Positions 18,666-42,992 of a DNA stretch of 64,000 bases are shown here, piece after piece (position 1 is the first letter of the stretch; the number at the start of each line of letters is the position of its first letter). A program made the translations under genes and the position numbers. Below the pieces are notes generated by a model, which made no database searches, had not been told where the DNA came from, and saw only the letters and a list, made by a program, of their open reading frames with translations. Origin of the DNA: a virus (taxonomy: Duplodnaviria; Caudoviricetes). The DNA is taken from positions 1 to 64,000 of the IMG/VR virus record IMGVR_UViG_3300025608_000013; one strand, 5' to 3'.

Positions 18666-19093
18666 CCATAGAAGCTTTATTCGATGATAACAACAATCAT
18701 AAATTTAGTTATTTGCTTCTTGCAAAAGAAAGCATTGACCATGCTACTTATGAATTGTTACACGAGGAACTTTCTAAAAAAATAAATGTAGTTCCGTTAC
18801 GAGCGAGTAAATACTCTGATGAAGATTTACGCAAAGCAGTTGAGTTAGCAGACTACGTAGTTACCGGTATAGGCAAAGTTTTAGATATTTGTGTAGAATT
18901 AGAACAGCCGGCATTGTGTGATGTTGCATCAAACAAATTAGATAAAACGTATCCGACGTTTATAGACTTTTATGATCCGTTTAGAAACGAAGAAACAAAA
19001 CCTTTTTATCAACCTAAAGATTTAGAATTATTAATAGAAGAGATATACAAACAACTTGATAGGCACAAAATAGATTATGTCAACTTTATGTAG
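18662..19093 (+). CDS. Hypothetical protein
   Basis: 143-aa ORF overlapping both neighbours. Confidence 0.6.
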   Translation: MTIEALFDDNNNHKFSYLLLAKESIDHATYELLHEELSKKINVVPLRASKYSDEDLRKAVELADYVVTGIGKVLDICVELEQPALCDVASNKLDKTYPTFIDFYDPFRNEETKPFYQPKDLELLIEEIYKQLDRHKIDYVNFM

Positions 19094-20015
19094 CGCATTG
19101 TGGAAACACACTAATATTAGACCTGGTGGACGAGTTTATCCTTGCTGCCGGTTTAAGTCGTGTGTAGGTAAAACTGACGGAGATTTATCTAGTGTTTTAC
19201 ATTCTGATGCATATAAATCGATACGTGCTAGTATGTTGAATAATGAAAAGATTATTGGCTGCGAAAAATGCTACTACGAGGAAAGTATTGGACATAAAAG
19301 CCTACGTGAAGAGTTTAACGAAAAATACGACACAGATAGTGTAGGATTAGAATACTTAGAAATTGGTATTGACAATCTTTGTAATCTAGTATGTGATGGT
19401 TGTAACTCAGAGTTTAGTACTAGTTGGCGAGCGAAAGAAATTCGCGAACAAGGCAGTGCAAATTACGATTATATGACTATCGATAATATTACTAGTGTGC
19501 CCAACACTGTGCGTAAAATATTATTTCTAGGCGGCGAGCCATTAATTACAAAGCGTCATTTAGAGCTATTAAAGCTAGTAGAAGATCCTAGTAAAGTCAG
19601 TGTTGTGTATAACACCAATGCAATGTATATGCCTGATTTAGAAACAGAAAGCATTTGGGATAAATTTAAAAACGTTAGATTTATCGTAAGTGTCGACGGT
19701 GTAGAAGAAGTTGCAGAGCGTGTAAGAGGAGGAACAAAATGGGAGAAAGTAAAACAATTTGTTCATTATGCTGTTACTAATTACGAACTAGAATTTAATA
19801 CAGTGCTACATAAAAATAACTTTTTTGATATCGAAAATATCAATAGTTATGTAGGACAATATAATGCAGATTGGTATATTAATGTGCTAACGTATCCCAA
19901 AAATTTAGATATAAACACGCTGGATAATCAAGACAAAAGTTATATAAAGCAGACAGCAGAACGTTTAGAACTTCCTACAAAAGATTTTATTATCAATCAC
20001 CTTGATACCAACTAA
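19077..20015 (+). CDS. Radical SAM protein with N-terminal SPASM/twitch-like Cys cluster
   Basis: CNLVCDGC (CxxxCxxC), GGEP, SVDG; N-terminal C..W..PCC...CEKC. Confidence 0.85.
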   Translation: MSTLCSALWKHTNIRPGGRVYPCCRFKSCVGKTDGDLSSVLHSDAYKSIRASMLNNEKIIGCEKCYYEESIGHKSLREEFNEKYDTDSVGLEYLEIGIDNLCNLVCDGCNSEFSTSWRAKEIREQGSANYDYMTIDNITSVPNTVRKILFLGGEPLITKRHLELLKLVEDPSKVSVVYNTNAMYMPDLETESIWDKFKNVRFIVSVDGVEEVAERVRGGTKWEKVKQFVHYAVTNYELEFNTVLHKNNFFDIENINSYVGQYNADWYINVLTYPKNLDINTLDNQDKSYIKQTAERLELPTKDFIINHLDTN

Positions 20016-21186
20016 GCAAATCGTTTGCTAATCTGCTAGGCTCTGGCATGCTATTCAGTACTTTATATGTTTGATAGTTGTGCATAAGAATAGGCATCAA
20101 TTTTTCATAAACTGATTTCATTTCATTCATGTTTAAAGAATTTAATTTATCAATTTCTTTCCAACACATTTCAAGACGTTTTTGGTCGTCTAATTCTTTA
20201 TCATAACTTTCGTCTATAATATTTCCAAATGTAATAAATCCCATATCATGTAATAGATCTAGTGTTCCTGGCAATCCAATTACAACAAATGGATGTCCGT
20301 ATAAAAAACATTTAAGTACTTTTTCTGTAAACATTTGACGAGAATTACTTCGAGCAAAATCGCCTTCAGTAATAATACTAAAGTAACTTTGGTTAAAATA
20401 GTTTTCTAAATTTGGCATGTTTACTTTTACAGAATGATGTAAATTTTCAGTTACATCTAATTCTAAAGGAAGACATTTTAAACGTTCTTTTTGATCTTGT
20501 TCTAGCACTAGATTATTTAGATCAGGATCTAAAAACTTTCGCATATTCTTGTCACCTTCGCTTAACTTTACAGTATTATCGTCGTGTACTAGTGCAGCAT
20601 ACTCTCCTAGCATACAACTTAAAAATGTATGCTTTGCTATATCGTGTTTTAATAGATAGTCAACAGTTAGAATTCTATGTAATCGTTCTTGTCTATTTAA
20701 ACACAAAAACTTTTTATTTCTTAGTTGTGTATTAACTAAAAAATTATGTTCTTGAACATTTAAATTATCATATTCGGACAAGTGTACATGAATGTTAAAA
20801 TAAAGATAATTATTACTATTACCAAAAACATGTTTGCAAATATTTTTCATTTTAGCGTTGCTACTAAGAATTCTCCAGTGTTTAATACTAGGACAATGTT
20901 CTAGTGTATTTTTAAACATCTGCATAAATTCTTCGTTTGCTAAACCTTCATAACTGTCATCTAAAATTAAAAATAGATCAGTATTAGCAAATCTTTCTAA
21001 CATGCTTGGCATTTGACTAAGCATATATTCGTTATTACCTACAAATTCAAAGAAAAGGATCATCTGAGGTTGTACTATAAAACTTTCTTGATCTACAGTA
21101 AATCTCAATATGTCTTCGTACTTCTGATTCAATACTTCGTAAGTTCTTGCACCACCTTGAAGAAATGCTGTAGGTATATTAATCAT
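19993..21186 (-). CDS. Glycosyltransferase-like protein (GT10-like C-terminal motif)
   Basis: KFLCLNR..R.HR, YFSIITE, FTEKVLKC...HPFVVIG...L..GF.TF..IDESYD. Confidence 0.5.
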   Translation of the reverse strand: MINIPTAFLQGGARTYEVLNQKYEDILRFTVDQESFIVQPQMILFFEFVGNNEYMLSQMPSMLERFANTDLFLILDDSYEGLANEEFMQMFKNTLEHCPSIKHWRILSSNAKMKNICKHVFGNSNNYLYFNIHVHLSEYDNLNVQEHNFLVNTQLRNKKFLCLNRQERLHRILTVDYLLKHDIAKHTFLSCMLGEYAALVHDDNTVKLSEGDKNMRKFLDPDLNNLVLEQDQKERLKCLPLELDVTENLHHSVKVNMPNLENYFNQSYFSIITEGDFARSNSRQMFTEKVLKCFLYGHPFVVIGLPGTLDLLHDMGFITFGNIIDESYDKELDDQKRLEMCWKEIDKLNSLNMNEMKSVYEKLMPILMHNYQTYKVLNSMPEPSRLANDLLSWYQGD

Positions 21187-22055
21187 AGCTTTTCCATCTT
21201 GTGTTTGATAAGTGCTTCGGGCTGAGGCTTTCTATCTGGATTAGCAGGACACATTGCACATATAGCATGCGGTTGTCTAATGTTATCAATAAACTCGTTT
21301 AATTGTTGTTCTGTACAATCTAATCCTAGTCCGCTGTACTCTAAATAAGGAGCCCAATCCGGATCGTCTAACTGTAAACTTTTAGTTAGATGTGTTTTAA
21401 CCATGCTAATAGGAGGGCATTTATATAACCTATTTTTATATATAATAGGATAAACGTTAGCACTGCAATTAGCATAACTTCTTGCAGGATCGTTATCAGT
21501 CCACGGCTTTAACACTCCGTTTACTGTTTGTCTATAATCATACCAATCGCCTTGAGTAGGATCAGTAGTCTCAAATACAATATCTTTGTATTGCCATGTG
21601 TTTGGTCCTGTTTGATACCACGGATATTGTTTAAAAATATACTTTTTGATATTTCTATCAATAATAGACCTTACTTGCGGATCTCGATTATGATAAGTTA
21701 AACTAATCTTAGCATTTCCTATTTCTAGTAATTGTTCTATTAGTTTAGGACGCTTAGGAAATAGTAATCCGTTTGTATAAATTTCTATGCAAGCATGATC
21801 AAAATGAGTTCTTGTGGTATTGATAATGTCACTGATATACGGATGCAATAAGGGCTCACCGCCTATTAATGTTAAATTGTCAGGGTCAAGATGCTTACTC
21901 CATGCTTCCATATTTTGAGTAATATCGTCGAACGATTCTGTCCAGTTATGATTATAGTCAATGAAACGATCACACCCCGGGCAAGCTAAGTCGCACGAGG
22001 TGGTAATCATCCATTCAAGGAAAGGTAGCCAGTGTCCTCTGTCACCGTCACGCAT
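21183..22055 (-). CDS. Radical SAM protein
   Basis: CDLACPGC, GGEPLLHP, YTNG; C-terminal C..KCP..CAMC. Confidence 0.85.
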   Translation of the reverse strand: MRDGDRGHWLPFLEWMITTSCDLACPGCDRFIDYNHNWTESFDDITQNMEAWSKHLDPDNLTLIGGEPLLHPYISDIINTTRTHFDHACIEIYTNGLLFPKRPKLIEQLLEIGNAKISLTYHNRDPQVRSIIDRNIKKYIFKQYPWYQTGPNTWQYKDIVFETTDPTQGDWYDYRQTVNGVLKPWTDNDPARSYANCSANVYPIIYKNRLYKCPPISMVKTHLTKSLQLDDPDWAPYLEYSGLGLDCTEQQLNEFIDNIRQPHAICAMCPANPDRKPQPEALIKHKMEKL

Positions 22056-28676: not shown

Positions 28677-29384
28677 TTAGTCTGCGTTAGGATCCATCGC
28701 ACCTTTGGTTTTCTTACCTGCTGGTGAGCCTGGAAGCATTTGTACTGCTAGACCTGGTTCAAACTCTGCGAGTGCTGTAGGAGCATCGCGTAGTAGCTGG
28801 CGGTAAGTTAGCCATTCCTGGCGCATTTCTTCTGGCATTCCGTCGTCAATTACACCATCTGCATCGTCTAATGCATCGTTGCGGAACTTACGGAAATCGT
28901 CCCATGTAAAGCTATCTGGTACACCATGCGAGTCATGATCTTTAATAGGAATGTTAAATTCGCCAGTATCAAAGTCATATACAATGTTAAATTCATCGTA
29001 AATATCACGTGGTTCAAAATCTTCAGTTCTTAAAGTTTGTGTATTTTCATAACCGTCTGGACTAATTCCACTGTCAATCCATTCGCGTGTCTCACGAAGT
29101 TGAAGGGCTTCTTCTTTACCGCAATCGTTTGCGATTTCACAAAGCAACGGTTGCTCTTTGCAGTCTACAGTAACACGTTGTACATCAAGTGCGCACGGAC
29201 GTTCTAGATCTTCGTCAGTCCATAAACACCATCCTGATTCTTTACCACTAACTTTATCAATCTCAAAAGTTAAAAACTCTGGACCTTCGTATGTCCAAGT
29301 TCCGGTATTTCCGTTATTAAACTCTGCACAACACCACTCATCTGGTATTGGGTAAGTAAATTCTTTTGTAATGTATGTTGCCAT
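28677..29384 (-). CDS. Tail fibre assembly chaperone (Tfa-like C-terminal domain)
   Basis: WDDFRKFRNDALDDAD...EWLTYRQLLRDAP; ATG 29384 follows GAGGAG. Confidence 0.7.
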   Translation of the reverse strand: MATYITKEFTYPIPDEWCCAEFNNGNTGTWTYEGPEFLTFEIDKVSGKESGWCLWTDEDLERPCALDVQRVTVDCKEQPLLCEIANDCGKEEALQLRETREWIDSGISPDGYENTQTLRTEDFEPRDIYDEFNIVYDFDTGEFNIPIKDHDSHGVPDSFTWDDFRKFRNDALDDADGVIDDGMPEEMRQEWLTYRQLLRDAPTALAEFEPGLAVQMLPGSPAGKKTKGAMDPNAD

Positions 29385-29417
29385 TTTATTTAAGCTCCTC
29401 AAACATATTTATCATTA

Positions 29418-30254
29418 TTACATAAATGTTATTCTAACAACGCCTGAACCACCCTGTGTGCCACCGGCACAACATTTGTGAGCGTTATCGTAGTAACTAT
29501 TTTCGCCTGACTGTCCACCGCCAGCTGGCCAGTTGTTGTAACATCCGCAAACACACCATGTTTCTGATGCAGAGTTAAACGAACGTTTACCAATTATTGG
29601 TGCGGCGCCAGTCCAATTACCACGGCGTCTACAATGGTGATGACCGTTACCAAAACGCATACCTGTGTCACCCATCATTACCATATCGGCACCAAAACCG
29701 CCACAAATATTACAGTTAGCGCAACCCCATGAGCGATCATATACGCCCCAAGCGTCTGCGTTACAGTTCCATCCACTACAACCACCTGTTACACAGAAGT
29801 TGTTTAGGTTATGTCCGTTTACATATGAACGACATCCCATTCCTGCTGTACATGTATGTGATTTTTCACATGGCCATGAACCGCCAGCGCACACTGTATA
29901 TGTACAACCAGGTGTTGTTTCAATTGTTTTAATAGCGTAGTTTCCGCCTTGTCCAGAGATAGTATACATACAGCAGTTAGCACATGTACCTCCTGCGCCT
30001 GCTCCGCCGCCTGACCAAATTTCAAAAGTAACTGTTGAAACACCACCGGGCACTGTCCATAAACAACATTGACCATTTGACTGTCCGCAACAATCACCGT
30101 TGTTAGCGCACTGATGACATTCTAGGCCGCGTTGATTGTAGATCCACTGTACACCGTAGTTGTGTCCTGCACCAGGTGCTAGATCTGCTCTAGTCAGCTC
30201 TCGATCTGGAATACTTTCTGTTTTTACTTTTTTATAACTTGCGTATGACGCCAT
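29418..30254 (-). CDS. Cys/Gly-rich tail-tip-like protein, paralogue 1 (26 Cys)
   Basis: WTVPGGV..VTFEIWSGGGAGAG Gly-rich domain; GGSGVVRITF C-terminus. Confidence 0.7.
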   Translation of the reverse strand: MASYASYKKVKTESIPDRELTRADLAPGAGHNYGVQWIYNQRGLECHQCANNGDCCGQSNGQCCLWTVPGGVSTVTFEIWSGGGAGAGGTCANCCMYTISGQGGNYAIKTIETTPGCTYTVCAGGSWPCEKSHTCTAGMGCRSYVNGHNLNNFCVTGGCSGWNCNADAWGVYDRSWGCANCNICGGFGADMVMMGDTGMRFGNGHHHCRRRGNWTGAAPIIGKRSFNSASETWCVCGCYNNWPAGGGQSGENSYYDNAHKCCAGGTQGGSGVVRITFM

Positions 30255-31557
30255 CTTGTTTTTCCTATTCTTTAAGCAAACGTAATCTTAACAATGCCTG
30301 AACCGCCTTGACCTTGTCCGCCGCCGCAGCATTTTTCTGCTGTTTCACAGTAAGAACTCATTCCGCCTAGCGATCCGCCAGCTGGCCAGTTAACGTGATA
30401 TCCACATCCGCACCATGATTCTGTTAAAGACATTTGGTGAATTACTCCGCCTAGCATTGGTGCACCGCCTGTTGACTGGTGGTCAGCACCTTGACAATGA
30501 CAACCTGAGTGACCTAGTCTGTTTCCAACAAATCCCATAATACCAAAGTCTGCACCAAACATACCACAAATGTTACAGTTAGCACAGCCATATGACTTAT
30601 CATATGTACCCCATGCGTCACCATTACACATCCAGCCACCACAACCACCTGTTACACAGAAGTTGCTTAGGTTATGTCCGTTTACATATGAACGACATCC
30701 CATTCCAGCTGAACAAGTGTGTGACTTACTACACGGCCACGAGCCGCCGGCACATACTGTATATTGACAACCAGGTGTAGTACTAATATGCTTCATAGCA
30801 TAGTTTCCGCCGGCGCCGCCGCCATTAAATGAACAACAGTTACAACATGTCTGTCCGGCTCCGCCGCCTCCACCTGACCAAATTTCAAATGTTACTTTTG
30901 ATACACCACCGGGTACAGTCCATAAACAGCATCTTCCATTTGCTTGAGCACAACAGCCGCCAGCTGCTGAACAGGTTTGACATTGTAATGCTCGCTCAGC
31001 ATAAATCCACTGAACACAGGCTTGGTTACCTTCGCCAATTCCGATTTTTTCAGCTGCAATACTGCCGTCTTCGAATTGGTCTGTTTTTATTTTTTTATAA
31101 CTTGCGTAACTTGCCATTCTTTATCCTTTTACGTAAATGTAATTTTTACAATTCCCGAGCCGCCTTGACCCATGCCGCCTGCGCAACATTTTTCTGCTGT
31201 TTCACAATATGGAGAAACGCCTGATGCTCCGCCGCCAGCTGGCCAGTTTACATAACATCCGCAAGCACACCATGCTTCTGATGTTGCCACAGCTTGCATT
31301 TTACCAATTAAAGGTGCTTGTCCAGTAAAGCTAGTTTGTCCATGACATCTACATGCACTTCCGCCTGTTCTAAAGCCAGTTGTTCCTGGCATTGTCATAT
31401 CTGCTCCGCCAAAAGAAGCGCAAATATTACAACCTGCACAAGTACCATGAATACGTGGACCCCAAGCATCACCATTACACATCCAGCCGCCACAGCCGCC
31501 GATGACACAATAGTTGCTTAGGTTATGTCCGTTTACATATGAACGACATCCCATTCC
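29804..31557. repeat. 40-bp exact repeat x3 (29804-29843, 30667-30706, 31518-31557)
   Basis: TTAGGTTATGTCCGTTTACATATGAACGACATCCCATTCC is identical in all three paralogues. Confidence 0.9.
30272..31117 (-). CDS. Cys/Gly-rich tail-tip-like protein, paralogue 2 (29 Cys)
   Basis: Same architecture; MASYASYKK start. Confidence 0.7.
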   Translation of the reverse strand: MASYASYKKIKTDQFEDGSIAAEKIGIGEGNQACVQWIYAERALQCQTCSAAGGCCAQANGRCCLWTVPGGVSKVTFEIWSGGGGGAGQTCCNCCSFNGGGAGGNYAMKHISTTPGCQYTVCAGGSWPCSKSHTCSAGMGCRSYVNGHNLSNFCVTGGCGGWMCNGDAWGTYDKSYGCANCNICGMFGADFGIMGFVGNRLGHSGCHCQGADHQSTGGAPMLGGVIHQMSLTESWCGCGYHVNWPAGGSLGGMSSYCETAEKCCGGGQGQGGSGIVKITFA

Positions 31558-31968
31558 GCCTGTGCATGTATGCGACTTACTACACGGCCACGAGCCGCCG
31601 GCACATACTGTATACTGACAACCAGGTCTAGTACAGATAGTTTTTGATGCATAACTACCACCTTGGCCCCCGGCGGAGAATCCACAACAGTTACAGCATG
31701 TATGTCCGGCTCCGCCGCCGCCACCTGACCAAATTTCAAATGTTACTTTTGATACATTGTTCGGAACAGTCCACAAACAACATCTTCCGTTTGCTTGCTC
31801 ACAACACCCGCCGGCGTTAGCACAGTTATGACATGCGTGACCTCGGCTATTATAAATCCACTGAACACCGTATGCGTTTCCTGCGCCGTTTACTAATTTA
31901 TCTTGCGTAACTGCGCCGTCTGTAACTTGTTCAGACTTAACTTTTTTATAACTTGCATAAGATGCCAT
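31129..31968 (-). CDS. Cys/Gly-rich tail-tip-like protein, paralogue 3 (30 Cys)
   Basis: Same architecture; MASYASYKK start. Confidence 0.7.
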   Translation of the reverse strand: MASYASYKKVKSEQVTDGAVTQDKLVNGAGNAYGVQWIYNSRGHACHNCANAGGCCEQANGRCCLWTVPNNVSKVTFEIWSGGGGGAGHTCCNCCGFSAGGQGGSYASKTICTRPGCQYTVCAGGSWPCSKSHTCTGGMGCRSYVNGHNLSNYCVIGGCGGWMCNGDAWGPRIHGTCAGCNICASFGGADMTMPGTTGFRTGGSACRCHGQTSFTGQAPLIGKMQAVATSEAWCACGCYVNWPAGGGASGVSPYCETAEKCCAGGMGQGGSGIVKITFT

Positions 31969-31986: not shown

Positions 31987-32442
31987 TTATACTGATAGTA
32001 GACGCCAGCCGTATGTTCCGCCTGAATAAACTATGTCAAACGATGCACCTTCTGAGTCTACAGTTAGATCTGCACCGTCGCCCATAATTAGGTTACCATT
32101 ACGTGCAAGTGTGCATGCATTAGTATCAAAAGTACGTGCTGCGTCAAACACACGAATCGAATCGCCTACTTGCGGACTTGCTGGCAATGTAACAGTTCTG
32201 CTGCCGCTGCTAGTGTCCATAAAAATTTGTTGTCCTGGTGCTGCTGTAACATTACTACTAGTATTTACTGTTTCAAACGCACCTACCGGAAGCCAAGAAG
32301 TTCCATTGTAAAATTCTAAAAAGTTTCTGTCGGTATTAAATCTAAAGAAACCTGCTGCCGGAGCAGTTGGTCTTTGATTTTCAGGACCATACGGAAGCGT
32401 TGCTCCTGTTGGTGCTGAACCTAGTGTAATTCTTCTTCCCAT
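31987..32442 (-). CDS. Small tail fibre-associated protein
   Basis: LPYG...QRP...GFFRFNT..LEFYNGTSW module plus VTLPASPQVGD.I module. Confidence 0.65.
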   Translation of the reverse strand: MGRRITLGSAPTGATLPYGPENQRPTAPAAGFFRFNTDRNFLEFYNGTSWLPVGAFETVNTSSNVTAAPGQQIFMDTSSGSRTVTLPASPQVGDSIRVFDAARTFDTNACTLARNGNLIMGDGADLTVDSEGASFDIVYSGGTYGWRLLSV

Positions 32443-32452: not shown

Positions 32453-32776
32453 TTAAGCCGGTTGTGCTGTTTCAATGCCGTACGCAACAACGTTTACGTT
32501 TGCTTGTGACGATCTTACAACAATGTAGGCATTAGCTTCAATTACAATACCTGTTCTTTCTAGCACACCTTTAGGTGCTAGCTGCACGTCATACTCAATA
32601 TATTCAGCATTACCCGGTGTTTCAGTTGTACTAACTGCAACACGAATGTCTGCTGTGTTAGAACCTCTGTTACAAACGTTGATGGTTGCTACTGCGTAAA
32701 ATCCATCTGGTACTTGATATACCGTTTCGTTTGTGCTTACAGATAGGTCTGCTGTTCCTAGTCTACCATTTGCCAT
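32453..32776 (-). CDS. Small virion beta protein (family shared with 43389-43721 and 52201-52533)
   Basis: VYQVP..ATINVCNRG..IEYD..LERTGIV. Confidence 0.6.
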   Translation of the reverse strand: MANGRLGTADLSVSTNETVYQVPDGFYAVATINVCNRGSNTADIRVAVSTTETPGNAEYIEYDVQLAPKGVLERTGIVIEANAYIVVRSSQANVNVVAYGIETAQPA

Positions 32777-32806
32777 TTTATGTTCTCTCCGTTAATATTT
32801 ATCTTG

Positions 32807-35800
32807 TTACTTTAAGAAGTATGATAGCGCAACTGGATCGCCTGCGATACCACCTTCAAAGTTAGCTGTAGCAGTAATATTCAAAGGCACATTAGTACTT
32901 GTACTAATTGTGTCTCCAGTAATATTTACCACACCTGCCGTAATGGCGTTTACGTTTAGTTCCGACTGACCGCCACCAATCTGTGAGTTAATGTAAGCAA
33001 TAATTGCTCGTTGTGTTGGTACAACATTATCTGAGTTAGCACTAAATGATCCATCTGTACTAAATTCGTTAATGACTGCACCGCCAGCACCTAGTCCAAC
33101 AGCACCAAGTTGTAGTTCTTGTAGTCCTGCTAGTGAGAACGCATTAACATTCAAACTTGCTTGTCCTGTTGCCTGTTCAACGTTAAACAAACGTCCAACA
33201 CGGAAGTTACCATCTTGGTCTGTACTTGTGTAGAACACTCGTCCGCCACCGCCTTCGACTACTTCATCGTCAATATCTGGTGCAATTAGTGGAGTACCTG
33301 GATAGTTAGTATTCTGGAAATTACCAGTACCAATGTCTAGGAAGTCGTGTCCTGTTAGTCGTGTTTGAGAATAACGAATTCTCAATTCAAAACTTGTTCC
33401 GTGTGCAGGAGCAGTTTCAATTCCTGTATCTGGAGCAATTTGTAAATTAGCAGTATAAGGACCGTTTCCTAACAATTCACGCACAGCAACAATCTTAAAG
33501 AATCTACTATCGCCTGTAATAGTTAAGTTTGACCCTTCTTGCGGAATGTCTGTTAGTCCTTCAACATTAAGGTACTGTCCTGACTGGAAGATATCTGCAT
33601 AACCGTCTCCAGTTGTAACTTCAGCACTTGCAGTTTCGTAGTCAACACCTCTATTACTCCAAGTAGGTTGAGTTAGAACACCGTCTGCAATTCTTACATC
33701 ATGCGGTACATCTAGTGTACTACTCGGATCTGTAATTGTCATTGTTGGTGCACTAGTATATCCACTACCTGGGTTAACAATACGGATCTCAACTACACGC
33801 TCGTCTGATACTCTTGCACGAGCAAATGCGCCAGAACCGCCGCCGCCGCTAAATGTTACTCTTGGCTCAACAATGTAAGTTGTAGTAGCATCTAGTGCAG
33901 TTTCGATTGGGTTAGTATAGTGGAATGTATCCCAACCTGCTGTGCCATCACTTTCTTTAGCAATATTAGCAACTTTAGTATTAGCGTTATATGCAGTAAT
34001 TCTACCATACTGTCCTGCGCCTTTACCTGATAAGATTACAATACGCATACCAACATACTCTGCTGATTCTGCAACTTCTGTGTTAGAAAGTGTAATAGTT
34101 GTTGTAGTACCGGCCTGCGCAGTGTTTGTATTTGTATTGAATCCACGACCACCAAAGCTATCTGCTTCTCCGTCATCGTTATACGTACTTCCGTCATCTG
34201 GATTACGTAGTCTTACTTCAAATATACCACCATTAACAACGTTTGCACTATCTACTGCTGCGCCAAAACCTGCACCTGAAATACCGTATGTAGCAGTTGT
34301 ATAGTCTTGACCTGCATTAGTATATTCAACATGTAGTACTTCGTTACCGTCAGTTAATACATAACCAATTTGTGCTTCTAATTTGCGGTTATCAATTGTA
34401 CCAGTGATTGGAACTTCTGTTTCGTCAACACCTTCTGATACAGCGCCGAAGTCGCCATATGAACAGTTACCGTTAGTGCCACGAATCTTACCGCCTTCTT
34501 CTGCTAGATAACCAATGTGTCCATAGTATGAGAAGATACTAACAAGTTCTGCTCTACCTAAGTTAGTTACCCATGCACCAATACCGTCACTTAGTACCTG
34601 TGTAAAGTCGTTAGCAACAATCGAATCGTTACCGCCATCGTGGATGGCACCGTCTACTTTAATACCTACACAGCCTGTACCAAATGTTGTTACACCTTGT
34701 ACATATGGTGAACGTGTTTGAATCCATACACGGTCGTCTTCTGTTCCCCAACCTGGATCAAGTGATGTATATGCACCTGCTGTTGGACGCTTAGTACCGT
34801 AGCTGTTTGCTGCTCCAAGTGTACCATTTAATCCAGCTGTTGTCATGTTACGAATACCAGTTGCATCTCGTAGTAAGTACATGTTTTCTAATTGTGAACC
34901 TTGTACACTGTTTGTGTAGAACAAGCCTGCCATTAGTGTTTCATAGTTACCCGGATATGCTAGGTCGTATTTAAATGCATCAATATATGCGCGAACGTCA
35001 CGCTCACATGCAGTTTCGTCGTAATCGTAAGCAGGATAGTCATCGTTGATCTTGCTAGTAACTTCTCTAGCAATGAAGTCTTTGTTAAGCTCTAGCAATC
35101 TAATTGCACGATAAATTTGCTCATCATCAACTCGGGTATTATTGCCACCAAATACTGGTGCTGTTGAGTCACCAGTAGCACCATTGATTTCATAATCAAT
35201 TTTATCATATAGCTGTTGTACTAGATTTTGCACAAGTGTAGCTGTTCCTGCATCTGCATGAGGAAGACTATCATCTTGTGTTAATGTGTTGCCAGTTGTT
35301 GGTGTAATAGGATTACCAGTTACGATATCATCGATAACATCTTGTAAGTGTACAAGACCTGCTAGTGAGTATGTAACATCGCCCGAACCTGTTAATTGTC
35401 CTGCTGGCTCAACTCTTGTTGAACGTAGTTCGTCACCTTGGATCACACAGCGTTCTGGAACACGGATTGGAAGTACTTCAGTAAATCTTCCTGTCTTAAC
35501 CATAATGCTTGTATGACGCTTAACTTCTGCTGGAAGAGTCAAACCACCGCCTAGTGTAATTGAATTTTTCATTACAGTGTGCAATGTTGTAATGTCTGTT
35601 AATACACCAGTTTCTGCAGGCTTGCTAGTATCTTTAACTTGGATATACTGATTTGCTAGTGCAATACTACCTTCTGTCTGATAGTTTACATCTGGATCGA
35701 CACTGTTGATAACTTTATCAATTAGTACTAGTGCATAATCAAGTGCAGCAACGTTTTGAGATTCGCCGCCTACGTTAAACCAGTCACCGTCTGTCTGATT

Positions 35801-37606
35801 AATAAATGTATTTGCAACACGTCTTGTGTTTACATTTCCGCCCTTGCGTATATCTAAAATAACTGCGTCTATTACAAATCCAACAATACGTTCAAACTCT
35901 AACTGATCAAAATCAAAACCAATGAAGAACGGATCAGTTTCTGTAACAATCTGACGCTTAGTCCATTCACCTACTTCTTTTTGGATATAAGTTCTGTTAA
36001 CTTCTAGCAAATAAGTTGCGTTAGGTGCCTTTGTACCTTTTTCAACTTGTTCTGCTGCATAACGGATTGTTTTCCAAGGACGGTCTAGTGTAATACCGTA
36101 GCTAGGCGCTGGAGAGTCTACACCGTTGCTAGCAACATAATAAACATCATCAGTTGCACCAAAGTCTGTCCATTCTGGAATACCAGCAGCACTAACACTT
36201 AATACTTGACCTTCTTCGCCAATTGGCAGTCTTGCTGGTCCTGATCCACTTTGATAAAGGATATCACCTTCTGTAGTTAGAGCACTTTCTTCAGCACCTG
36301 ATGCTAAGTTATTCCAAAAGTCGCCTAGTGAATCGTTGTCTGGACGATTTGCTGTTTCTGATGTGTGTGCAGCAATACAAATGTAGCTGATTAGACCATA
36401 GCGTACTGCGTCACCTGCATCATAGAAAGTAGCAGTTAACCATTCATCTTTCCATTCAATACCCTGGTTTAGTCTTTCCCAGTATGTTGCGTTTGGTGGA
36501 CGTTGTCCTTCGTGATTAGTAACACAAAGATATGTATAGCCGCCTAGTCTTACAACATCACCTACACGATATTCTTGGTTAGTTGAGTCGTCTCCCCAGT
36601 CGCCACGGTTACGGAACCCGGTTGTTAATAAGTCCCACGAATCATCTACGCCAGGCTGTCTATTGTAGTTGTTTACAGTAGCAACATATCCAAAACCACC
36701 AAATGTTACAAAGTCACCTGGTTGATAATTTCTATTATAGTCCCAAGTGTTTTCAAATTCTAATCCTGGTACAAAAATTTCCCAGTTGTCTTGATCTGCT
36801 TTTAGTGTACCTGTTCCTGAATCGTCAGCTGGTACAACTGAAGTGTGGGGAACTGTACAAATCCAAAGCGTAGCACCGTACTTAACAACATCGTTTACTT
36901 TGTAGCGTGTTGCATTCGCCCATGTGCCTTTGTAATCGAAACCTTCGTTTAAGTAATCCCATTTTTCTTGGTCGTCTTCTAATCCTAGACCACTAGTTGC
37001 GGCAGAAGTGTGGCCTTGGTTACAAACATAAGTTGTTCCACCAAACTTAACAATGTCGTTTACTTTATAACGGGTGCTAGTAGCCCAAGTTGCTTTCCAC
37101 TCAAGACCTTCGGAGAATAAGTCCCAGCTGTTTTGATTAGCTTCTAATCCTAGAGCATCTGTAACAGCAGCAGTGTGACCAGTGTTACAGAAGTAAATAT
37201 TACCTCCGTACTTGACCAAGTCGTTTGCTTTGTACTGTGTACCTGCAACCCAATCTGATTTCCATTCAATAGATGTAGCAAACAGATCCCATTTTTCTTG
37301 ATCGTCTTCAAGAATTGAGCCAGCTAAGTGTCCTTCGTTACAGATATACAAAATACCACCGTATGCTACGATGTCATTTTCTTTATAAAACGTTCCTGTT
37401 GTCCAGTCGTTTTTCCATTCTGTACCGTCACTAAACTTGTTCCAATGATCCTCGTCATTGTAAAAGTTTGATGATGCTGTATGTCCGCGTACTGCTACAT
37501 ATGTTCTACCACCGTAGCGAACAATATCGTCCTTTAGATATTCTGTACTAGGAGACCAAACTCCTTTCCATATAAATCTAATTCTACCTAACTTAAATTC
37601 TGCCAT
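32807..37606 (-). CDS. Long tail fibre-like protein (1599 aa)
   Basis: N-terminal W....Y..ND.V.YGG..Y.C...H repeats (CBM5/12-like), YYVA..G.D..PWKTI beta-helix start; paralogue of the next gene. Confidence 0.75.
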   Translation of the reverse strand: MAEFKLGRIRFIWKGVWSPSTEYLKDDIVRYGGRTYVAVRGHTASSNFYNDEDHWNKFSDGTEWKNDWTTGTFYKENDIVAYGGILYICNEGHLAGSILEDDQEKWDLFATSIEWKSDWVAGTQYKANDLVKYGGNIYFCNTGHTAAVTDALGLEANQNSWDLFSEGLEWKATWATSTRYKVNDIVKFGGTTYVCNQGHTSAATSGLGLEDDQEKWDYLNEGFDYKGTWANATRYKVNDVVKYGATLWICTVPHTSVVPADDSGTGTLKADQDNWEIFVPGLEFENTWDYNRNYQPGDFVTFGGFGYVATVNNYNRQPGVDDSWDLLTTGFRNRGDWGDDSTNQEYRVGDVVRLGGYTYLCVTNHEGQRPPNATYWERLNQGIEWKDEWLTATFYDAGDAVRYGLISYICIAAHTSETANRPDNDSLGDFWNNLASGAEESALTTEGDILYQSGSGPARLPIGEEGQVLSVSAAGIPEWTDFGATDDVYYVASNGVDSPAPSYGITLDRPWKTIRYAAEQVEKGTKAPNATYLLEVNRTYIQKEVGEWTKRQIVTETDPFFIGFDFDQLEFERIVGFVIDAVILDIRKGGNVNTRRVANTFINQTDGDWFNVGGESQNVAALDYALVLIDKVINSVDPDVNYQTEGSIALANQYIQVKDTSKPAETGVLTDITTLHTVMKNSITLGGGLTLPAEVKRHTSIMVKTGRFTEVLPIRVPERCVIQGDELRSTRVEPAGQLTGSGDVTYSLAGLVHLQDVIDDIVTGNPITPTTGNTLTQDDSLPHADAGTATLVQNLVQQLYDKIDYEINGATGDSTAPVFGGNNTRVDDEQIYRAIRLLELNKDFIAREVTSKINDDYPAYDYDETACERDVRAYIDAFKYDLAYPGNYETLMAGLFYTNSVQGSQLENMYLLRDATGIRNMTTAGLNGTLGAANSYGTKRPTAGAYTSLDPGWGTEDDRVWIQTRSPYVQGVTTFGTGCVGIKVDGAIHDGGNDSIVANDFTQVLSDGIGAWVTNLGRAELVSIFSYYGHIGYLAEEGGKIRGTNGNCSYGDFGAVSEGVDETEVPITGTIDNRKLEAQIGYVLTDGNEVLHVEYTNAGQDYTTATYGISGAGFGAAVDSANVVNGGIFEVRLRNPDDGSTYNDDGEADSFGGRGFNTNTNTAQAGTTTTITLSNTEVAESAEYVGMRIVILSGKGAGQYGRITAYNANTKVANIAKESDGTAGWDTFHYTNPIETALDATTTYIVEPRVTFSGGGGSGAFARARVSDERVVEIRIVNPGSGYTSAPTMTITDPSSTLDVPHDVRIADGVLTQPTWSNRGVDYETASAEVTTGDGYADIFQSGQYLNVEGLTDIPQEGSNLTITGDSRFFKIVAVRELLGNGPYTANLQIAPDTGIETAPAHGTSFELRIRYSQTRLTGHDFLDIGTGNFQNTNYPGTPLIAPDIDDEVVEGGGGRVFYTSTDQDGNFRVGRLFNVEQATGQASLNVNAFSLAGLQELQLGAVGLGAGGAVINEFSTDGSFSANSDNVVPTQRAIIAYINSQIGGGQSELNVNAITAGVVNITGDTISTSTNVPLNITATANFEGGIAGDPVALSYFLK

Positions 37607-37643
37607 TTAATTGCTCCGTTTACTAGCTTTTTTATATTTATCT

Positions 37644-40600
37644 TTATCCGTTAAAGTCATCCTGCGATGTCATTGCTGCCATAAACAATGAATTTGCAAG
37701 CATGTCTCCATCCACTCCGCCGGTAAAGTTTGTAGTTTCACTGAAGTTAACAATACCTTCAGTAGTTCCTATTTCGTTATTTGTAGCAAATACAACACCT
37801 GCTGTAATTTTGTTAGTAAACAGCGTTGCTCCACCACCTGTAATACGATTTTCTAAGTAGTCTCCAATTGCTCTCTGTGTAGGAATAATTGCATCTGAGT
37901 TTGCAGTCATTGTATTATCTGTTGAGAACTCTCTAATTGTAGCCTGTGTACCGCCTACTTGAATACCACCTAGTCTCAATTCATCTAGTCCGCCTAGATC
38001 AAAGAAGTCTGCGTTTAGTGTTAAGCCACCTGATGCCTGTGCAACTCGGAATAGTTCACCTACTCTAAAGTTACCGTCTTGGTCAGTACTTGTGTAGAAC
38101 ACTCGTCCACCATTGGCTTCGACAATTTCGTTTGCCTGGCGTGTTTCGTTAATAGCTTCACGACCAAATACATATAGCTCTGGATAGTTTGTATCTTCAA
38201 AGTTACCAGTACCAATGTCTAGGAAGTCATGTCCTGTTAGTCGTACTTGTGAAAAGTCCTCACGTATTGTAATTGCTTCTTCATGATCTGGCGAAGTATC
38301 AATTGCAATCAATGGACTAATTCTTACCTTAATATCAAAATTAGGTGCTACTCCGCTTGTCTCTTCAACAAGTACAATACGATAGATTGTATCTGGTTGA
38401 CCTGCAAGACGTAAGTTTGATCCTGGACCTGGAACTTTTGCAACATTTTTAAGAACTAAGCTTTGACCTAGCTGATAAATGTCAGCATATCCGTTGCCTG
38501 TTAGTGTAGTTACAGCAGTAATATATCCGGTTCCTCTATTATAAAATGTCGGCTGCGGTAGTACTCCGTCATTAACATTTGTTTGTATTAACGGTTCGAT
38601 ATACTCTTCCGGATCTGTTACTGTAACTAAAGGTGTAGTTGCGTAACCTGAACCTGGATCTAAAACAATAAATCTGTTTAAGTTATTGTTAGCAACGGTT
38701 ACACGCATTAATGCTCTACGTCCGCCAGTAATAGTAACACCTGTGTCTGATCCGTCTTTGGTTAGCCATGTAGGTTGTCCGTTTACTACGCCGCCTGCAA
38801 CAGATCCGTAACCTGGTAAGTCAGCACGTTGTATCCAGTTTGCACTATCATCCGACGTTAGTAGTGTTCCGTTACTACCTACAGCAATAAATTCGCCGCC
38901 AGCATAAGCAATATTCCAATCTTGGCGTACTGAGTCGCCTACTAGATCACTGTCTAGCCAGTTTACACCGTCTGGTGAGTAAAAAATTCTGTCTGCATCA
39001 TTTACAGAAGCAACAAATTTGTTGTCTCCCCATACAATTTCGTTATACGCTTCGGGGCTAGACGGTGCAGGTAAAAGTCCACCTGTCCATGTATCGCCGT
39101 TGTCTTGACTATAAACTGTGTACCCGTCTGAACTAATGGCAATCCATAAGCCTGCACCATATGTAATGTCTACCCAGTCTCTGCTAGCTGGTAAACTTAC
39201 TGTTGTCCATGTATCAGGAGCAATACTCGAGTCCACACCTTGTGTAATTGTACCTTTTAGAACATTATCTTGTCCAGTAGCACATAAAATTACAGTATCG
39301 TTGTCTCTACCACCAACTGCAACACCTGTCCAGTCCCATGTTTGACCTAAATTTACATAGTCCCATAGTGTTCCTTCGTTTGAGTAGTGCAAATTAGCAG
39401 ATCCTTGCGATGCAATCAACATCATTGGACCGCTTTTAGCAATAGCACTCCATGTAGCACTATTTTCTAGCTGATTAGTTGTCCAAGTTGTACCGCTATT
39501 AGTACTTACCTCAACATCATTAGTACCGCTTAGTGCATAGTAGAAGTTTCCACCTGCAAAACCCATAATTCCTAGTCCTGCACGAGTTACGTTAGTTGTA
39601 CTATTCCAGTCTGGATCTGCAACACTTACTCTAGGTTCAATTTCGTACTTAGTAGTTTCGTCAAGTGTTAATTCTATTTGATTTGCACCAAGAATATTGT
39701 CCCAACCAATAGTATTTGTTGATTCTTTGTACACCGTAACTAGCTTGCTAACTTCATTATACGACTGAATCCAGCCATATTGACTTACACCTCGGCCGCT
39801 TGTAATATAAATTCTCATTCCAACAAGCTGCGCTGACAATCTTTCTTCAGATTGTGCTAGTGTAATAGTTGTTGCAGTGCCACTTTGAGCAAAATTAGTA
39901 ATAAATTTATAACCTGCGCCGCCGGCTGTACTACTGTCTTCTGGTTTTAGAATTCTAACATCACTAACAGCATTATCACGGAATTCGTTCCATTCAACGT
40001 CTAGTCCTGTTCCTGCACTGTTAATAGTATTAATACTTGCACTTGTATAATGTTGTCCTGCATTAAAATATCCAAATGCTATTACTTCGTCAGTATCAGT
40101 ATATGTTTTTTGTACCTGTGCTTCTAAACTTTGGTTGTTTACTTCGCCGGTAACTGGAATTTCTGTAGCTGAGAATCCTTCAGCAACTGAACCAAATGTA
40201 CCATACGAGTTGTTACCGTTAGTAGCACGTAAAATACCACCTTCTTCTGCAAGATATCCAATATGTGCATAGTATGTAAACACAGATACAAGCTCAGAGC
40301 GTCCTCCATTTGAGGCCCAATACCCAATTCCGTCACTTAGTACTTGTGTAAAGTCGTTGGCAACAACACTTCTGTTTCCGCCGTTATGCAATGCACCGTC
40401 AATCTTCATACCTACACAATTATTACCAATTGTTGTAACACCTTGTACATAAGTCGACTTATCACGTACCCATACACGCTGATCATCTGGGCCTTCACCT
40501 GGGTCAAGACTTACAAATGCGCCTCCTGTTGGACGTTTTGTTCCGTAATCGTTAGCGTCTGATAGTAAACCAGTCAATCCTTTCATCGATAACTGTCTAA

Positions 40601-42992
40601 TACCACAGCCGTTGCGTACATAGAACATGTCTAGTTCATTGTTGTTTGTAGGAATAACTAGTTCTTCTTGCGGTTGAATAATGCCGTGCAAGTTAGTTCT
40701 TTCGCTTAATATAACATCCCTTCCTTCTTCTGCAGGACGAATTGTAGTAGAACGTAATTCGTCTCCTACAATAGCAACGTCTTCAGGAACAATAATCGGA
40801 AGGATTTCTGCATAATCACCAGTCATTACACGAATAGTGGCTCCGCCGCGCGGTGGATTTTTAACTAGAGCAGGTAAACTTCCTAGTCCGTTTGCTACTA
40901 CGTCAGTAACGATTGCCATATAGTCTGTAACTTCGTCAGCTGCACCTGTTTCAGATGTAAATGCATCAGTATATTGTGTACTCTTTGTTTGAATACTCGA
41001 ATATAGTGAGTTTGCTATTACGTAATCATTAATTAGGTCACGTGCAAAGTTTAAGGCTGCAACAGTTTGATCCTGTTGACCATTTACTAAGCTAACTGCA
41101 CCATTCCAGTAAGACTGTGCAGATCTTCTTGTCTGCTCATTACCGGTATATGTCATATCTGTAGCCATACTATTAACAATAATAGCTACATCTCTAGCAC
41201 ATTTTTCTGCATTATAAGTAAAGCCGCTCCAAATACCTGTTCCTGCTGCTACATTTGCATCAATCCATGCTGTTGTTTCGTCTTTGATAAAATCTACGTT
41301 CTTTCTCATCAAGTTTGTTGCTCTTTCAAAGAATCTATCACGCAATCCTGAACGATTCTTTTCGTCACGTAGAATATAATTACATGCAAAGCGCAATGTA
41401 CGGAACGGAGCGTTTAATGTTCCGCCTTGCGATTCGTCGTCGATGCCATGTGTTGCAACATAATAAACATAATTGTGCTTATCAATACTATCCCACGCTG
41501 GCAAGTTTGATGTAGCTCTTAATGCTTGTCCTGTTGTACCAATTGCTAAACGCTGTGTGTCAACTGCTGTACTGTCTTGATCATCGTATGTTTTAATATC
41601 ACCAACTCTTGCAAGTTTGTTAGTTAATGTACCTTTGATCATGTATTTCCAGTAAGTGTCATCTGTATTGTTGACATCTAGATCTGGACGACTGTCTGAT
41701 TCTGTAGATCTATGATATTTTAGTGCAATATAGCTAGTACCTTGCCAAGTAACAATATCACCTGGATAGTATTCTACATCGTCTTCCCAAACATTACGGA
41801 ATTGGCGTCCATCCGATAATACTTCCCAAACATTTGGATGCAAATCTGGTTGTTGGTTAAGGTTGTCAGCTGTTGCAAGATATACATTTCCAGAAAAACG
41901 AACTACATCACCAGTTCTATAATTTATAAAACTAGAATCTTCGTTTTGAGTATTCCACTCTCCGAGAAATCTATATGCTACTAGGTTTAAATCCCAATCA
42001 CTAGGGTTAGTACTTGGAATTGTACTTACATTATAAGTTAATGCTTTATATGTGTAACCACCGTAACGTGCAATATCGCCTGGTTGATAGCGTGTACCGT
42101 CTTCCCATTCGCCTTCGTATTCTTGTCCTGGTAGATATACTTGCCATTTATCGCCATCGTCGGTAAATTCTTCACCCGATACGTGTGCAGTAATACATTT
42201 TACTGCTGACGGGCCTCTTTTTACAACATCGTTTACACGATATTTAATTTCAGGTGTCCAATCAAATCTATAATCAGTACCTTCGACTAAAATTTCCCAT
42301 TTACCTTGGTCTTGTTCTAGGCCAATATCGATATTATCTGCACTTGTATGTCCAATTGCACAACGATATACAATACCGCCATATTTAATAATATCATTTG
42401 TTCTGTAGCGTGTGCCAATACCCCAGTCGCCGCGCCAACTGTCGCCGTCTGATAATACTGCCCATTTGTTTTGATCTGATTCAAGACCTACAGCATTTGT
42501 CGAGGCAGAAATATGCTGTTCTAGTGCCTTGTAAACACGACCATTATAGCGTACAATGTCGTTTCGTCTGTATAGTGTGTTAGTTGACCAGTTGTATTTC
42601 CAATCTGTGTCTGATACAGCAACTACTTTCCATTTAGTAATGTCTTCAATAAGACCGTCTGTGCCTGAACTAAATGTTGGGCTTGATACGTGTTCTTCGA
42701 TACATTGATAAATGCCTGAACCATACTTAACAATAGCGCCTTCTGAATACGTTGTGCTAGTTGCCCAGTTTCCTTTCCATACTACACCGTCGGATTGTAG
42801 TTCCCATTTTGGTCTTGCCGGACTTACATCTGCACCTTCAATGTCATTAGAAAAAGTTGATGCTGTGTGTACTCTTAACGCTACGTAGGTTTTACCTTCG
42901 TATTCGATCATATCGTCAACTACATAGTCTGATCCTGATGTCCAAGATCCTTTCCATGTAAATCGAATTCTATTTAACTGAAATTCTGCCAT
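37644..42992 (-). CDS. Long tail fibre-like protein (~1780 aa) with BNR/Asp-box-like propeller insert
   Basis: Same N-terminal repeats and C-terminus (GHDFLDIGTG, FYTSTDQDGNFRVG) as 32807-37606; SQDNGDTW, SPDGVNW, SDDSANW boxes. Confidence 0.75.
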   Translation of the reverse strand: MAEFQLNRIRFTWKGSWTSGSDYVVDDMIEYEGKTYVALRVHTASTFSNDIEGADVSPARPKWELQSDGVVWKGNWATSTTYSEGAIVKYGSGIYQCIEEHVSSPTFSSGTDGLIEDITKWKVVAVSDTDWKYNWSTNTLYRRNDIVRYNGRVYKALEQHISASTNAVGLESDQNKWAVLSDGDSWRGDWGIGTRYRTNDIIKYGGIVYRCAIGHTSADNIDIGLEQDQGKWEILVEGTDYRFDWTPEIKYRVNDVVKRGPSAVKCITAHVSGEEFTDDGDKWQVYLPGQEYEGEWEDGTRYQPGDIARYGGYTYKALTYNVSTIPSTNPSDWDLNLVAYRFLGEWNTQNEDSSFINYRTGDVVRFSGNVYLATADNLNQQPDLHPNVWEVLSDGRQFRNVWEDDVEYYPGDIVTWQGTSYIALKYHRSTESDSRPDLDVNNTDDTYWKYMIKGTLTNKLARVGDIKTYDDQDSTAVDTQRLAIGTTGQALRATSNLPAWDSIDKHNYVYYVATHGIDDESQGGTLNAPFRTLRFACNYILRDEKNRSGLRDRFFERATNLMRKNVDFIKDETTAWIDANVAAGTGIWSGFTYNAEKCARDVAIIVNSMATDMTYTGNEQTRRSAQSYWNGAVSLVNGQQDQTVAALNFARDLINDYVIANSLYSSIQTKSTQYTDAFTSETGAADEVTDYMAIVTDVVANGLGSLPALVKNPPRGGATIRVMTGDYAEILPIIVPEDVAIVGDELRSTTIRPAEEGRDVILSERTNLHGIIQPQEELVIPTNNNELDMFYVRNGCGIRQLSMKGLTGLLSDANDYGTKRPTGGAFVSLDPGEGPDDQRVWVRDKSTYVQGVTTIGNNCVGMKIDGALHNGGNRSVVANDFTQVLSDGIGYWASNGGRSELVSVFTYYAHIGYLAEEGGILRATNGNNSYGTFGSVAEGFSATEIPVTGEVNNQSLEAQVQKTYTDTDEVIAFGYFNAGQHYTSASINTINSAGTGLDVEWNEFRDNAVSDVRILKPEDSSTAGGAGYKFITNFAQSGTATTITLAQSEERLSAQLVGMRIYITSGRGVSQYGWIQSYNEVSKLVTVYKESTNTIGWDNILGANQIELTLDETTKYEIEPRVSVADPDWNSTTNVTRAGLGIMGFAGGNFYYALSGTNDVEVSTNSGTTWTTNQLENSATWSAIAKSGPMMLIASQGSANLHYSNEGTLWDYVNLGQTWDWTGVAVGGRDNDTVILCATGQDNVLKGTITQGVDSSIAPDTWTTVSLPASRDWVDITYGAGLWIAISSDGYTVYSQDNGDTWTGGLLPAPSSPEAYNEIVWGDNKFVASVNDADRIFYSPDGVNWLDSDLVGDSVRQDWNIAYAGGEFIAVGSNGTLLTSDDSANWIQRADLPGYGSVAGGVVNGQPTWLTKDGSDTGVTITGGRRALMRVTVANNNLNRFIVLDPGSGYATTPLVTVTDPEEYIEPLIQTNVNDGVLPQPTFYNRGTGYITAVTTLTGNGYADIYQLGQSLVLKNVAKVPGPGSNLRLAGQPDTIYRIVLVEETSGVAPNFDIKVRISPLIAIDTSPDHEEAITIREDFSQVRLTGHDFLDIGTGNFEDTNYPELYVFGREAINETRQANEIVEANGGRVFYTSTDQDGNFRVGELFRVAQASGGLTLNADFFDLGGLDELRLGGIQVGGTQATIREFSTDNTMTANSDAIIPTQRAIGDYLENRITGGGATLFTNKITAGVVFATNNEIGTTEGIVNFSETTNFTGGVDGDMLANSLFMAAMTSQDDFNG

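Follow-up and report, generated by a model that had tools for sequence, protein, structure and literature searches.

Tandem cysteine-rich paralogues as candidate receptor-binding tip proteins of a giant tail fibre in T4-like cyanophages

Introduction

What purpose do three adjacent genes serve whose products are about 10% cysteine and lie beside the fibre genes of a tailed phage? This question is raised by a 64,000-nt stretch of viral DNA (Duplodnaviria; Caudoviricetes), corresponding to positions 1 to 64,000 of the IMG/VR record IMGVR_UViG_3300025608_000013 and hereafter called the window, in which positions 29,418 to 31,968 are occupied by a tandem triplet of glycine- and cysteine-rich paralogues. 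Marine T4-like cyanophages control the ocean's most abundant photosynthetic cells, and their receptor-binding proteins are poorly defined. The triplet also presents an unusual pair of features: ~28 cysteines are conserved in proteins produced under the reducing conditions of the cytoplasm, and a set of three paralogues is strictly maintained, its members exchanging sequence by gene conversion. Two questions are at stake: do phages assemble tips from three different chains, and is it oxidation or metal that locks the adhesins of ocean virions? Here, we propose, with a probability of roughly 60%, that the three proteins are paralogous subunits that form the receptor-binding tip of a long tail fibre in an uncultured marine T4-like cyanophage, with the cysteines acting as cross-links and the subunits probably assembled as a mixed trimer.

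Results

Composition of the three paralogues

The three genes follow one another on the same strand with gaps of 11 and 17 nt between them. An AGGA-type ribosome-binding site precedes each of them, and the gaps contain no convincing terminator. Relative to paralogue 1, the first to be transcribed, the protein sequences of paralogues 2 and 3 were 67% and 66% identical, respectively. Cysteine accounted for 9.4–10.8% of residues, against a median of 0.8% across the 51 open reading frames (ORFs) of the window; the next-highest ORF reached 3.1%, and the five giant structural proteins, which include the giant fibre proteins, contained 0–0.6%. This enrichment is far from chance. Glycine made up 18–21% of residues. 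The motifs CC, CxxC, CCxCC and CxCxC, together with FEIWSGGG(A/G)GAG, were found in all three paralogues, and the CxxCH haem motif of c-type cytochromes had no occurrence in any of them. Their N-termini (MASYASYKK...) are hydrophilic and no signal peptide was apparent when the sequences were judged by eye. A preliminary description of this locus, made from the letters alone, had reported three tandem paralogues of ~280 residues with 26–30 cysteines, the same motifs and no haem motif, all of which we could confirm. The neighbours that it named (a Tfa-like gene, a fibre module, and radical S-adenosylmethionine (SAM), halogenase and oxygenase genes) were likewise present, the Tfa-like resemblance being weak.

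Predicted fold and family membership

PHROGs places the triplet proteins in phrog_4205, whose annotated function is unknown. An AlphaFold2 model of paralogue 1 was built on a 46-sequence alignment (pLDDT 72.6, pTM 0.72), and its best match among solved structures was the fibre protein gp24 of cyanophage Pam3 (7ypx_A, Foldseek E 3e-7). VIA, a structure search independent of Foldseek, gave the same protein at Z 17.1 (root-mean-square deviation 3.3 Å over 194 residues), covering model residues 31–279. The runners-up were the tail tip of mycobacteriophage Bxb1 (9D93, Z 11.7) and the TNF-like plus glycine-rich (TG) domains of ALK and LTK (Z 8–9.4), after which scores dropped to Z 4. For an ESM Atlas model of a triplet protein, all structural neighbours were viral and carried PF21722 or PF12810.

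Sequence profiles led to the same superfamily by an indirect route. Fifteen of the 46 close homologues matched PF21722 (best E 4.6e-9). The remote relatives P0142, P0146, P0162 and P0221, which the family profile detected (E 3e-11 to 3e-21), scored 27–38 bits against PF21722 (cut-off 24.3) over positions about 5–225 of 226. The window proteins themselves fell short of the PF21722 gathering score, and neither one triplet protein nor the family profile had a match when PDB chains were searched by sequence. Membership in PF21722 (Gly_rich_2) is thus supported at the superfamily level, through intermediates and the predicted fold rather than a direct hidden Markov model (HMM) match.

In the model, only about 30 residues stand before the sandwich. 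Two central glycine runs are kept in the window proteins, GGGGGAG at 82–88 and GQGGSG at 267–272, and the remaining loop segments, which are the least confident parts of the model, carry the cysteines. The fold agrees with the fibre-tip or adhesin character first suggested for these proteins, with Pam3 gp24 as the best structural match. Two details of that suggestion had to be corrected. The closest relatives appear to lie not with T-even gp38 but in the TG family of Pam3 gp24, Bxb1 and ALK–LTK (PF21722/PF12810), and glycine accounts for no more than 18–21% of residues, the cysteines sitting in segments that are polyglycine in Pam3.

Distribution and conservation of the triplet module

Among 50,697 phage records searched by tblastn, the triplet family occurred in four, representing S-SSM7 (two records), S-SSM6a and Sf-FS3. 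Each had three tandem copies (SSSM7_114–116 in S-SSM7) in the same gene order at 38–40% identity. Megablast with the 5-kb region as query gave no match in phage genomes, and the remote relative P0142 was unmatched in the phage collection. Metagenomic sequences were abundant. Viral contigs yielded 445 confirmed matches, and the family comprised at least 249 clusters at the 90% identity level and 378 representatives at the 50% level. Even remote relatives whose N-termini differ markedly contained 7–12% cysteine and, judging by these sequences, the cysteine-rich form is a broad viral family. A literature search found no description of this triplet family.

Seventy-five related loci were fetched and copy number was scored in the 67 with enough flank, all of which had exactly three copies. 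The occurrence of the surrounding genes in the scorable loci is presented in Table 1. The tail-fibre neighbourhood recognised at the outset was therefore upheld, as a giant fibre gene, a fibre module and a probable chaperone flank the triplet. P-SSM2 (NC_006883.2) and P-SSM5 were observed to have a two-copy version in the same genomic slot. Its P-SSM2 members, PSSM2_304 and PSSM2_306 (356 and 355 aa, 36 cysteines each; 7001–9867 of the P-SSM2 locus), have long, helical-looking N-termini and flank a 225-aa, cysteine-free weak homologue of the chaperone, ahead of a glycosyltransferase (GT)-like gene and a carbamoyltransferase gene.

These data bear on whether the proteins belong to the virion at all. 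An intracellular set for metal or redox buffering, similar to metallothioneins, or some other non-structural role during infection would be compatible with the high cysteine content and with a virion location that we infer from context. We give this explanation hardly any credence. Against it stand the fibre-tip fold, a gene order that at every locus puts them between a giant fibre gene and a probable fibre chaperone gene, and hypervariable loops of the kind typical of receptor-binding proteins, as well as a metagenomic relative (P0123, 477 aa) in which a tail-fibre N-terminus is fused to a C-terminal cysteine-rich TG domain.

Conservation and chemistry of the cysteines

Cysteine was the most conserved class of residue, with a mean column entropy of 0.18 bits compared to 0.42 for glycine and 1.12 for the rest. 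Twenty-eight alignment columns were at least 90% cysteine among 126 near relatives, and 18 of these were kept in the S-SSM7 group (S-SSM7, Sf-FS3) at about 40% identity; the conservation of cysteine positions that the preliminary description had put forward as a check is therefore real. Two pairs of positions (numbered as in paralogue 1) varied together. C206 and C255 were both present in 230 sequences and both absent in 10, including paralogue 3 of the window, where they are replaced by H and Y. C117 and C148 were mutually exclusive, C117 occurring with H, Y or F at 148 and W117 with C148. Each pattern probably reflects one clade, and together they suggest direct spatial coupling of these positions, whatever the chemistry.

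We read the cysteines as structural cross-links, with disulfides formed after release modestly favoured over metal. A tip whose conserved cysteines bind Zn or Fe–S in the reducing host cytoplasm, and which is thereby held together in its distal bundle, is possible but we regard it as the less probable option. Virions are assembled in that cytoplasm, and the triplet-bearing genomes searched showed no gene for a DsbA-like oxidase. A search of these genomes for Erv/ALR was uninformative, as its control matched in no genome. The mix of CC, CxC, CxxC and CxxCxxC motifs resembles that of metal–thiolate proteins, cysteine counts had no even-number bias (136 even and 104 odd among 240 sequences), and His replaces C206 in the clade that lost the 206/255 pair. 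A precedent is lambda gpL, reported by Tam et al. (2013, as cited in PMC13243795) to be a tail-tip protein with an Fe–S cluster. However, several observations fit metal poorly. The near family invariably has the CxxCxxC spacing (C177-x2-C180-x2-C183), but the S-SSM7 group lacks C177 and C183 and has cysteines at 173 and 179 instead. His148 is unconserved (H, Y, F or A), and the paired loss of two cysteines with drift at 255 is easier to explain by a lost disulfide than by damage to a four-ligand site. Furthermore, mass spectrometry and dithiothreitol (DTT) treatment have demonstrated disulfides in Pam3 virions (PMC9608196, PMC9942802), and in Jabs they are described as virion-wide (bioRxiv 10.64898/2026.07.24.740622).

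Orthology, gene conversion and stoichiometry of the three copies

Within lineages, the positional copies formed clean orthologous clades, with support of 99–100 among the 35 phages of one group and of 100 among the four to which the window belongs. In a tree built on the variable segments alone, positional orthology extended deeper (8 label changes vs 12) with modest support. At the nucleotide level, the window genes shared exact runs of 36–46 nt despite 65–69% overall identity. A 40-nt block (alignment nt 412–451) was identical in all three paralogues, and further exact runs of 20–46 nt were common to pairs. The block was considered as a conserved nucleotide element and this was ruled out, as synonymous sites vary normally across the family. 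Because the shared block is not conserved at these sites, the nucleotide comparison indicates that within-genome gene conversion acts among the paralogues.

An N-terminal decapeptide (residues 1–10, MA(S/T)Y.SYKK) was common to all three paralogues and to the distant S-SSM7-type relatives. With the same decapeptide in all copies, docking on equivalent sites would be expected. A fibre end is expected to have three-fold symmetry. Exactly three retained copies, equivalent docking peptides and a three-fold fibre end together favour a mixed (1:1:1) trimer, with one of each paralogue, as the most likely arrangement at the fibre end.

Divergence among the paralogues is greatest at 198–229, in the putative receptor loops, and would suit three alternative tips, each paralogue forming its own homotrimer or a gp38-like monomeric cap at equivalent fibre ends. 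One virion or population would then show three receptor specificities and have a wider or more robust host range. This arrangement deserves tentative consideration. Pam3 gp24 is a homotrimer (PMC9608196), paralogues with an identical docking peptide could compete for one site, P-SSM2 and P-SSM5 have two copies with long helical-looking N-termini, and both homogenisation by gene conversion and grouping by lineage at depth are as anticipated for equivalent scaffolds. Copy number should vary under such a scheme, yet it was exactly three in all 67 loci and in the 40%-identical S-SSM7 group, and the proteins have no long N-terminal helix to drive self-trimerisation. The preliminary description spoke of a 'heterotrimeric or interchangeable' adhesin. 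Both terms can still apply, and strict triplication shifts the balance towards the 1:1:1 set.

An obligate 1:1:1 heterotrimeric tip, in which most of the polyglycine lattice is replaced by a Zn/Fe–S metal–thiolate core made in the host cytoplasm, is a combination that we consider improbable. If true, receptor-binding proteins would include a new, metal-loaded kind and, the family being common in ocean viral metagenomes, virions would carry a pool of trace metal.

Fibre module, probable chaperone and late-type motifs

The 151-aa protein encoded upstream of the triplet is a candidate docking platform for the tip proteins (Table 1). It was 46% identical to the last 141 residues (1337–1477) of the 1477-aa giant fibre-like protein of S-SSM7, the gene for which (4516–8949 of the S-SSM7 locus) directly precedes the S-SSM7 triplet. 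The 151-aa protein and the C-terminus of the S-SSM7 fibre thus represent a split/fused gene pair between cyanophage lineages. In the window, the fibre module probably caps the distal end of the 1599-aa giant fibre-like protein. Both giant fibre-like proteins listed in Table 1 have several ~55-residue repeats (W..W..G..Y...D.V.Y.G..Y.C...H) at their start.

A late-type GATAAATA motif, which is a variant of the T4 late-promoter box TATAAATA, was located 15–30 nt upstream of the 107-aa, giant fibre and chaperone genes; it was not found directly ahead of the triplet genes. For the chaperone gene, the likelier start is the ATG at 29384, with a GAGGAG ribosome-binding site 8 nt upstream and GATAAATA before it, not the TTG at 29402 of the ORF list. 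Its product matched PF16778 (Phage_tail_APC) at E 6.9e-5 and 23.1 bits, below the 26.6 cut-off, and the profile of the chaperone family matched PDB 2KZ6 at E 0.0046 through a W..YRQ.LRDLP motif. In VIA, 2KZ6 was among the matches at Z 5.4, level with many unrelated chains, so the fold did not support the assignment. Homologues of the gene occurred in exactly the four phage records of the 50,697 that carry the triplet. It is chiefly because of this strict co-occurrence, the strongest support available, that we regard the downstream gene as a probable fibre assembly chaperone.

Table 1 Features of the triplet locus and its neighbours, with occurrence of module genes among related loci.
Feature	Position	Strand	Size	Characteristics	Occurrence (scorable loci)
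Trp halogenase	16528-18012			Downstream side of module	
Radical SAM gene	19077-20015	+		Carries SPASM domain	
Radical SAM gene	21183-22055	-			
Probable tail-fibre assembly chaperone, directly downstream of triplet	28677..29384	-	235 aa	Weak PF16778 and 2KZ6 profile matches; conserved position	64/64
GATAAATA region, chaperone gene	29385-29410	-			
Paralogue 3	29418..30254	-	278 aa	26 Cys, 49 Gly; without pair C206/C255	
Paralogue 2	30272..31117	-	281 aa	29 Cys, 58 Gly; phrog_4205 E 1e-32	
Paralogue 1, candidate TNF-like + Gly/Cys-rich (TG) fibre-tip protein	31129..31968	-	279 aa	30 Cys, 54 Gly; phrog_4205	
Fibre-end module, candidate docking platform	31987..32442	-	151 aa	Weak T4_gp9_10_N match; N-terminal tailspike-anchor PHROG matches	68/68
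Small fibre-module protein	32453..32776	-	107 aa	phrog_11338 'tail fiber protein' E 2e-12; homologue PSSM2_302	65/67
GATAAATA region, 107-aa gene	32777-32800	-			
Giant fibre-like protein, upstream of triplet	32807..37606	-	1599 aa	Homologous to S-SSM7 'phage tail fiber-like protein' and P-SSM2 'tail fiber protein'	53/53
GATAAATA region, giant fibre gene	37607-37640	-			
Giant fibre-like protein	37644-42998	-			
GT-like gene					59/59
Carbamoyltransferase					53/55

Enzyme genes on the downstream side

In addition to the halogenase and the two radical SAM genes, 2-oxoglutarate (2OG)-oxygenase-like ORFs were found downstream of the module. The radical SAM gene on the plus strand lies opposite to its neighbours, and its SPASM match (residues 5–66) is N-terminal to the core (101–248), whereas the usual order is the opposite. 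For both radical SAM genes, orthologues (72–79% identity) were confined to a contig from the lineage of the window itself, and the triplet-bearing S-SSM7, S-SSM6a and Sf-FS3 had none. Four other long triplet-bearing contigs gave only distant, partial matches to the radical SAM superfamily, far from the triplet.

SPASM-type radical SAM enzymes often act on cysteine-rich peptides. The triplet proteins could be modified in the manner of ribosomally synthesised and post-translationally modified peptides (RiPPs), receiving thioether, halogen, hydroxyl, glycosyl or carbamoyl groups from the neighbouring radical SAM/SPASM, halogenase, 2OG-oxygenase, GT or carbamoyltransferase enzymes. The genes in question lie within 1–13 kb on the downstream side, one of the radical SAM proteins has the SPASM domain, and the GT-like and carbamoyltransferase genes follow the module in nearly all scorable loci (Table 1). 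We nevertheless consider this very unlikely. The radical SAM orthologues are confined to the window's lineage, almost all of the 146 phage records with the carbamoyltransferase lack the triplet, which is carried by four, and the triplet proteins are predicted to be full-size folded domains with no leader–core layout. The RiPP-like modification raised in the preliminary description was thus not borne out, as the radical SAM orthologues do not co-occur with the triplet. By their distribution, a dedicated modification system for the triplet proteins is not supported, and modification within this one lineage may occur.

Discussion

A candidate architecture for the fibre tip

The evidence above is consistent with the following arrangement. 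Each chain would comprise an N-terminal docking peptide (residues 1–10), a variable linker (about 11–33) and a TNF-like beta-sandwich, the loops of which would extend into a distal bundle as in Pam3 gp24, with only the two central glycine runs retained. The other strands of the bundle would carry the ~28 conserved cysteines, which most likely tie it together as a dense network of cross-links. Disulfides forming once the virion reaches oxic seawater are the favoured chemistry, and metal–thiolate sites the alternative. The chains may dock on the 151-aa module, the counterpart of which is the C-terminus of the giant fibre in S-SSM7, and the dedicated downstream Tfa-like chaperone would assist folding or assembly. 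The hypervariable segments (about 198–229) are likely receptor contacts. Since every lineage keeps exactly three copies, all with one docking peptide, the three-fold fibre end would most likely hold one of each paralogue as a mixed trimer.

A number of results weigh against this arrangement. With regard to the fold, the window proteins matched no Pfam family at E up to 1, confidence in the model of paralogue 1 was middling and lowest in the cysteine-rich loops, and the model had no helix of at least four residues before residue 41, such that a long N-terminal trimerisation helix is absent. The chaperone matches were all sub-threshold in sequence, and Foldseek and VIA searches with its model gave generic helical-hairpin matches only. 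Fixed A/B/C roles were not shown by the deep lineages, in which copies cluster by lineage and not by position, and the distant P-SSM2/P-SSM5 branch has two copies rather than three. With regard to the chemistry, the odd cysteine counts in 104 of 240 sequences do not indicate a fully intrachain-disulfide state, and a phage DsbA was not found in the 92-kb record of the window (~26% complete), S-SSM7, Sf-FS3 or two long contigs, which is weak evidence. Finally, the published cyanomyovirus proteomes are those of S-SM1, S-PM2 and Syn9, none of which was among the tblastn matches for the family.

The triplet module nonetheless points to specific proteins as the possible tip of one giant fibre, and it is found in the cultured phages S-SSM7, S-SSM6a and Sf-FS3 (S-SSM7 and Sf-FS3 being grown on Synechococcus WH8109 and WH8102), distantly in P-SSM2 and P-SSM5, and on hundreds of metagenomic contigs.

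Comparison with known systems

The closest known system is the gp24–gp25 pair of Pam3 (PDB 7YPX, 7YFW; PMC9608196, PMC9942802). In Pam3 gp24 the N-terminal domain is helical, a TNF-like sandwich follows, and the distal end is a glycine-rich domain with a proposed role in receptor binding; gp25, a chaperone encoded downstream, assembles the fibre protein (PMC9608196). The TNF-like sandwich, with loops forming a distal glycine-rich bundle, the central GGGGxGG-type runs, the variable distal part and an origin in a cyanophage are points of likeness with the window proteins, and Pam3 virions use disulfides. However, sequence identity is ~19%, and the 75-residue helical trimerisation domain of Pam3 compares with ~30 N-terminal residues here. 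The glycine-rich domain of Pam3 is 39% glycine, whereas the window proteins are 10% cysteine and 18–21% glycine. Pam3 also has one gene in place of three paralogous genes, and its fibre sits directly on the baseplate, whereas the window proteins would sit on a giant fibre. Other members of PF21722 (Gly_rich_2) and PF12810 (ALK_LTK_GRD), including ALK and LTK (7NX1, 7LIR, 7NX3) and Bxb1 (9D93), share the same overall fold (Z 8–11.7), and neither the cysteine-rich elaboration nor the tandem triplet is among the features described for them.

The gp38 adhesin of T-even phages and S16 (6F45) is similar in outline, as a small distal protein that caps a long fibre, has the fibre gene upstream and presents conserved glycine motifs framing hypervariable receptor loops; Pam3 gp24 itself is reported to resemble gp38 (PMC9608196). 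Unlike the predicted TNF-like sandwich, gp38 is a polyglycine-II sandwich with a beta-helix middle domain, and it forms a single monomeric cap, not three. The window proteins had no Pfam match to the gp38 family, and 6F45 was not among the Foldseek or VIA matches listed. For the mixed trimer, a parallel is offered by ORF60-61-62 of mycobacteriophage Jabs, a candidate heterotrimeric receptor-binding module encoded by three adjacent genes (bioRxiv 10.64898/2026.07.24.740622). Three adjacent genes yielding one mixed trimer is the arrangement that the window genes may share; the Jabs trimer is disulfide-linked to the tail and, unlike the proteins described here, has a beta-sandwich of the phage 1358 receptor-binding protein type. 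The A, B and C chains of C1q, with their TNF-like gC1q heads, form a further mixed trimer.

The fold and the logic of a fibre plus its chaperone are therefore known, from Pam3 gp24–gp25 and the PF21722/PF12810 TG family. New with respect to every described member are the ~10% conserved cysteine that replaces much of the polyglycine lattice, the lack of a long helical N-terminus, the likely linkage to a giant fibre by way of a free-standing 151-aa module, and a strict triplet under gene conversion.

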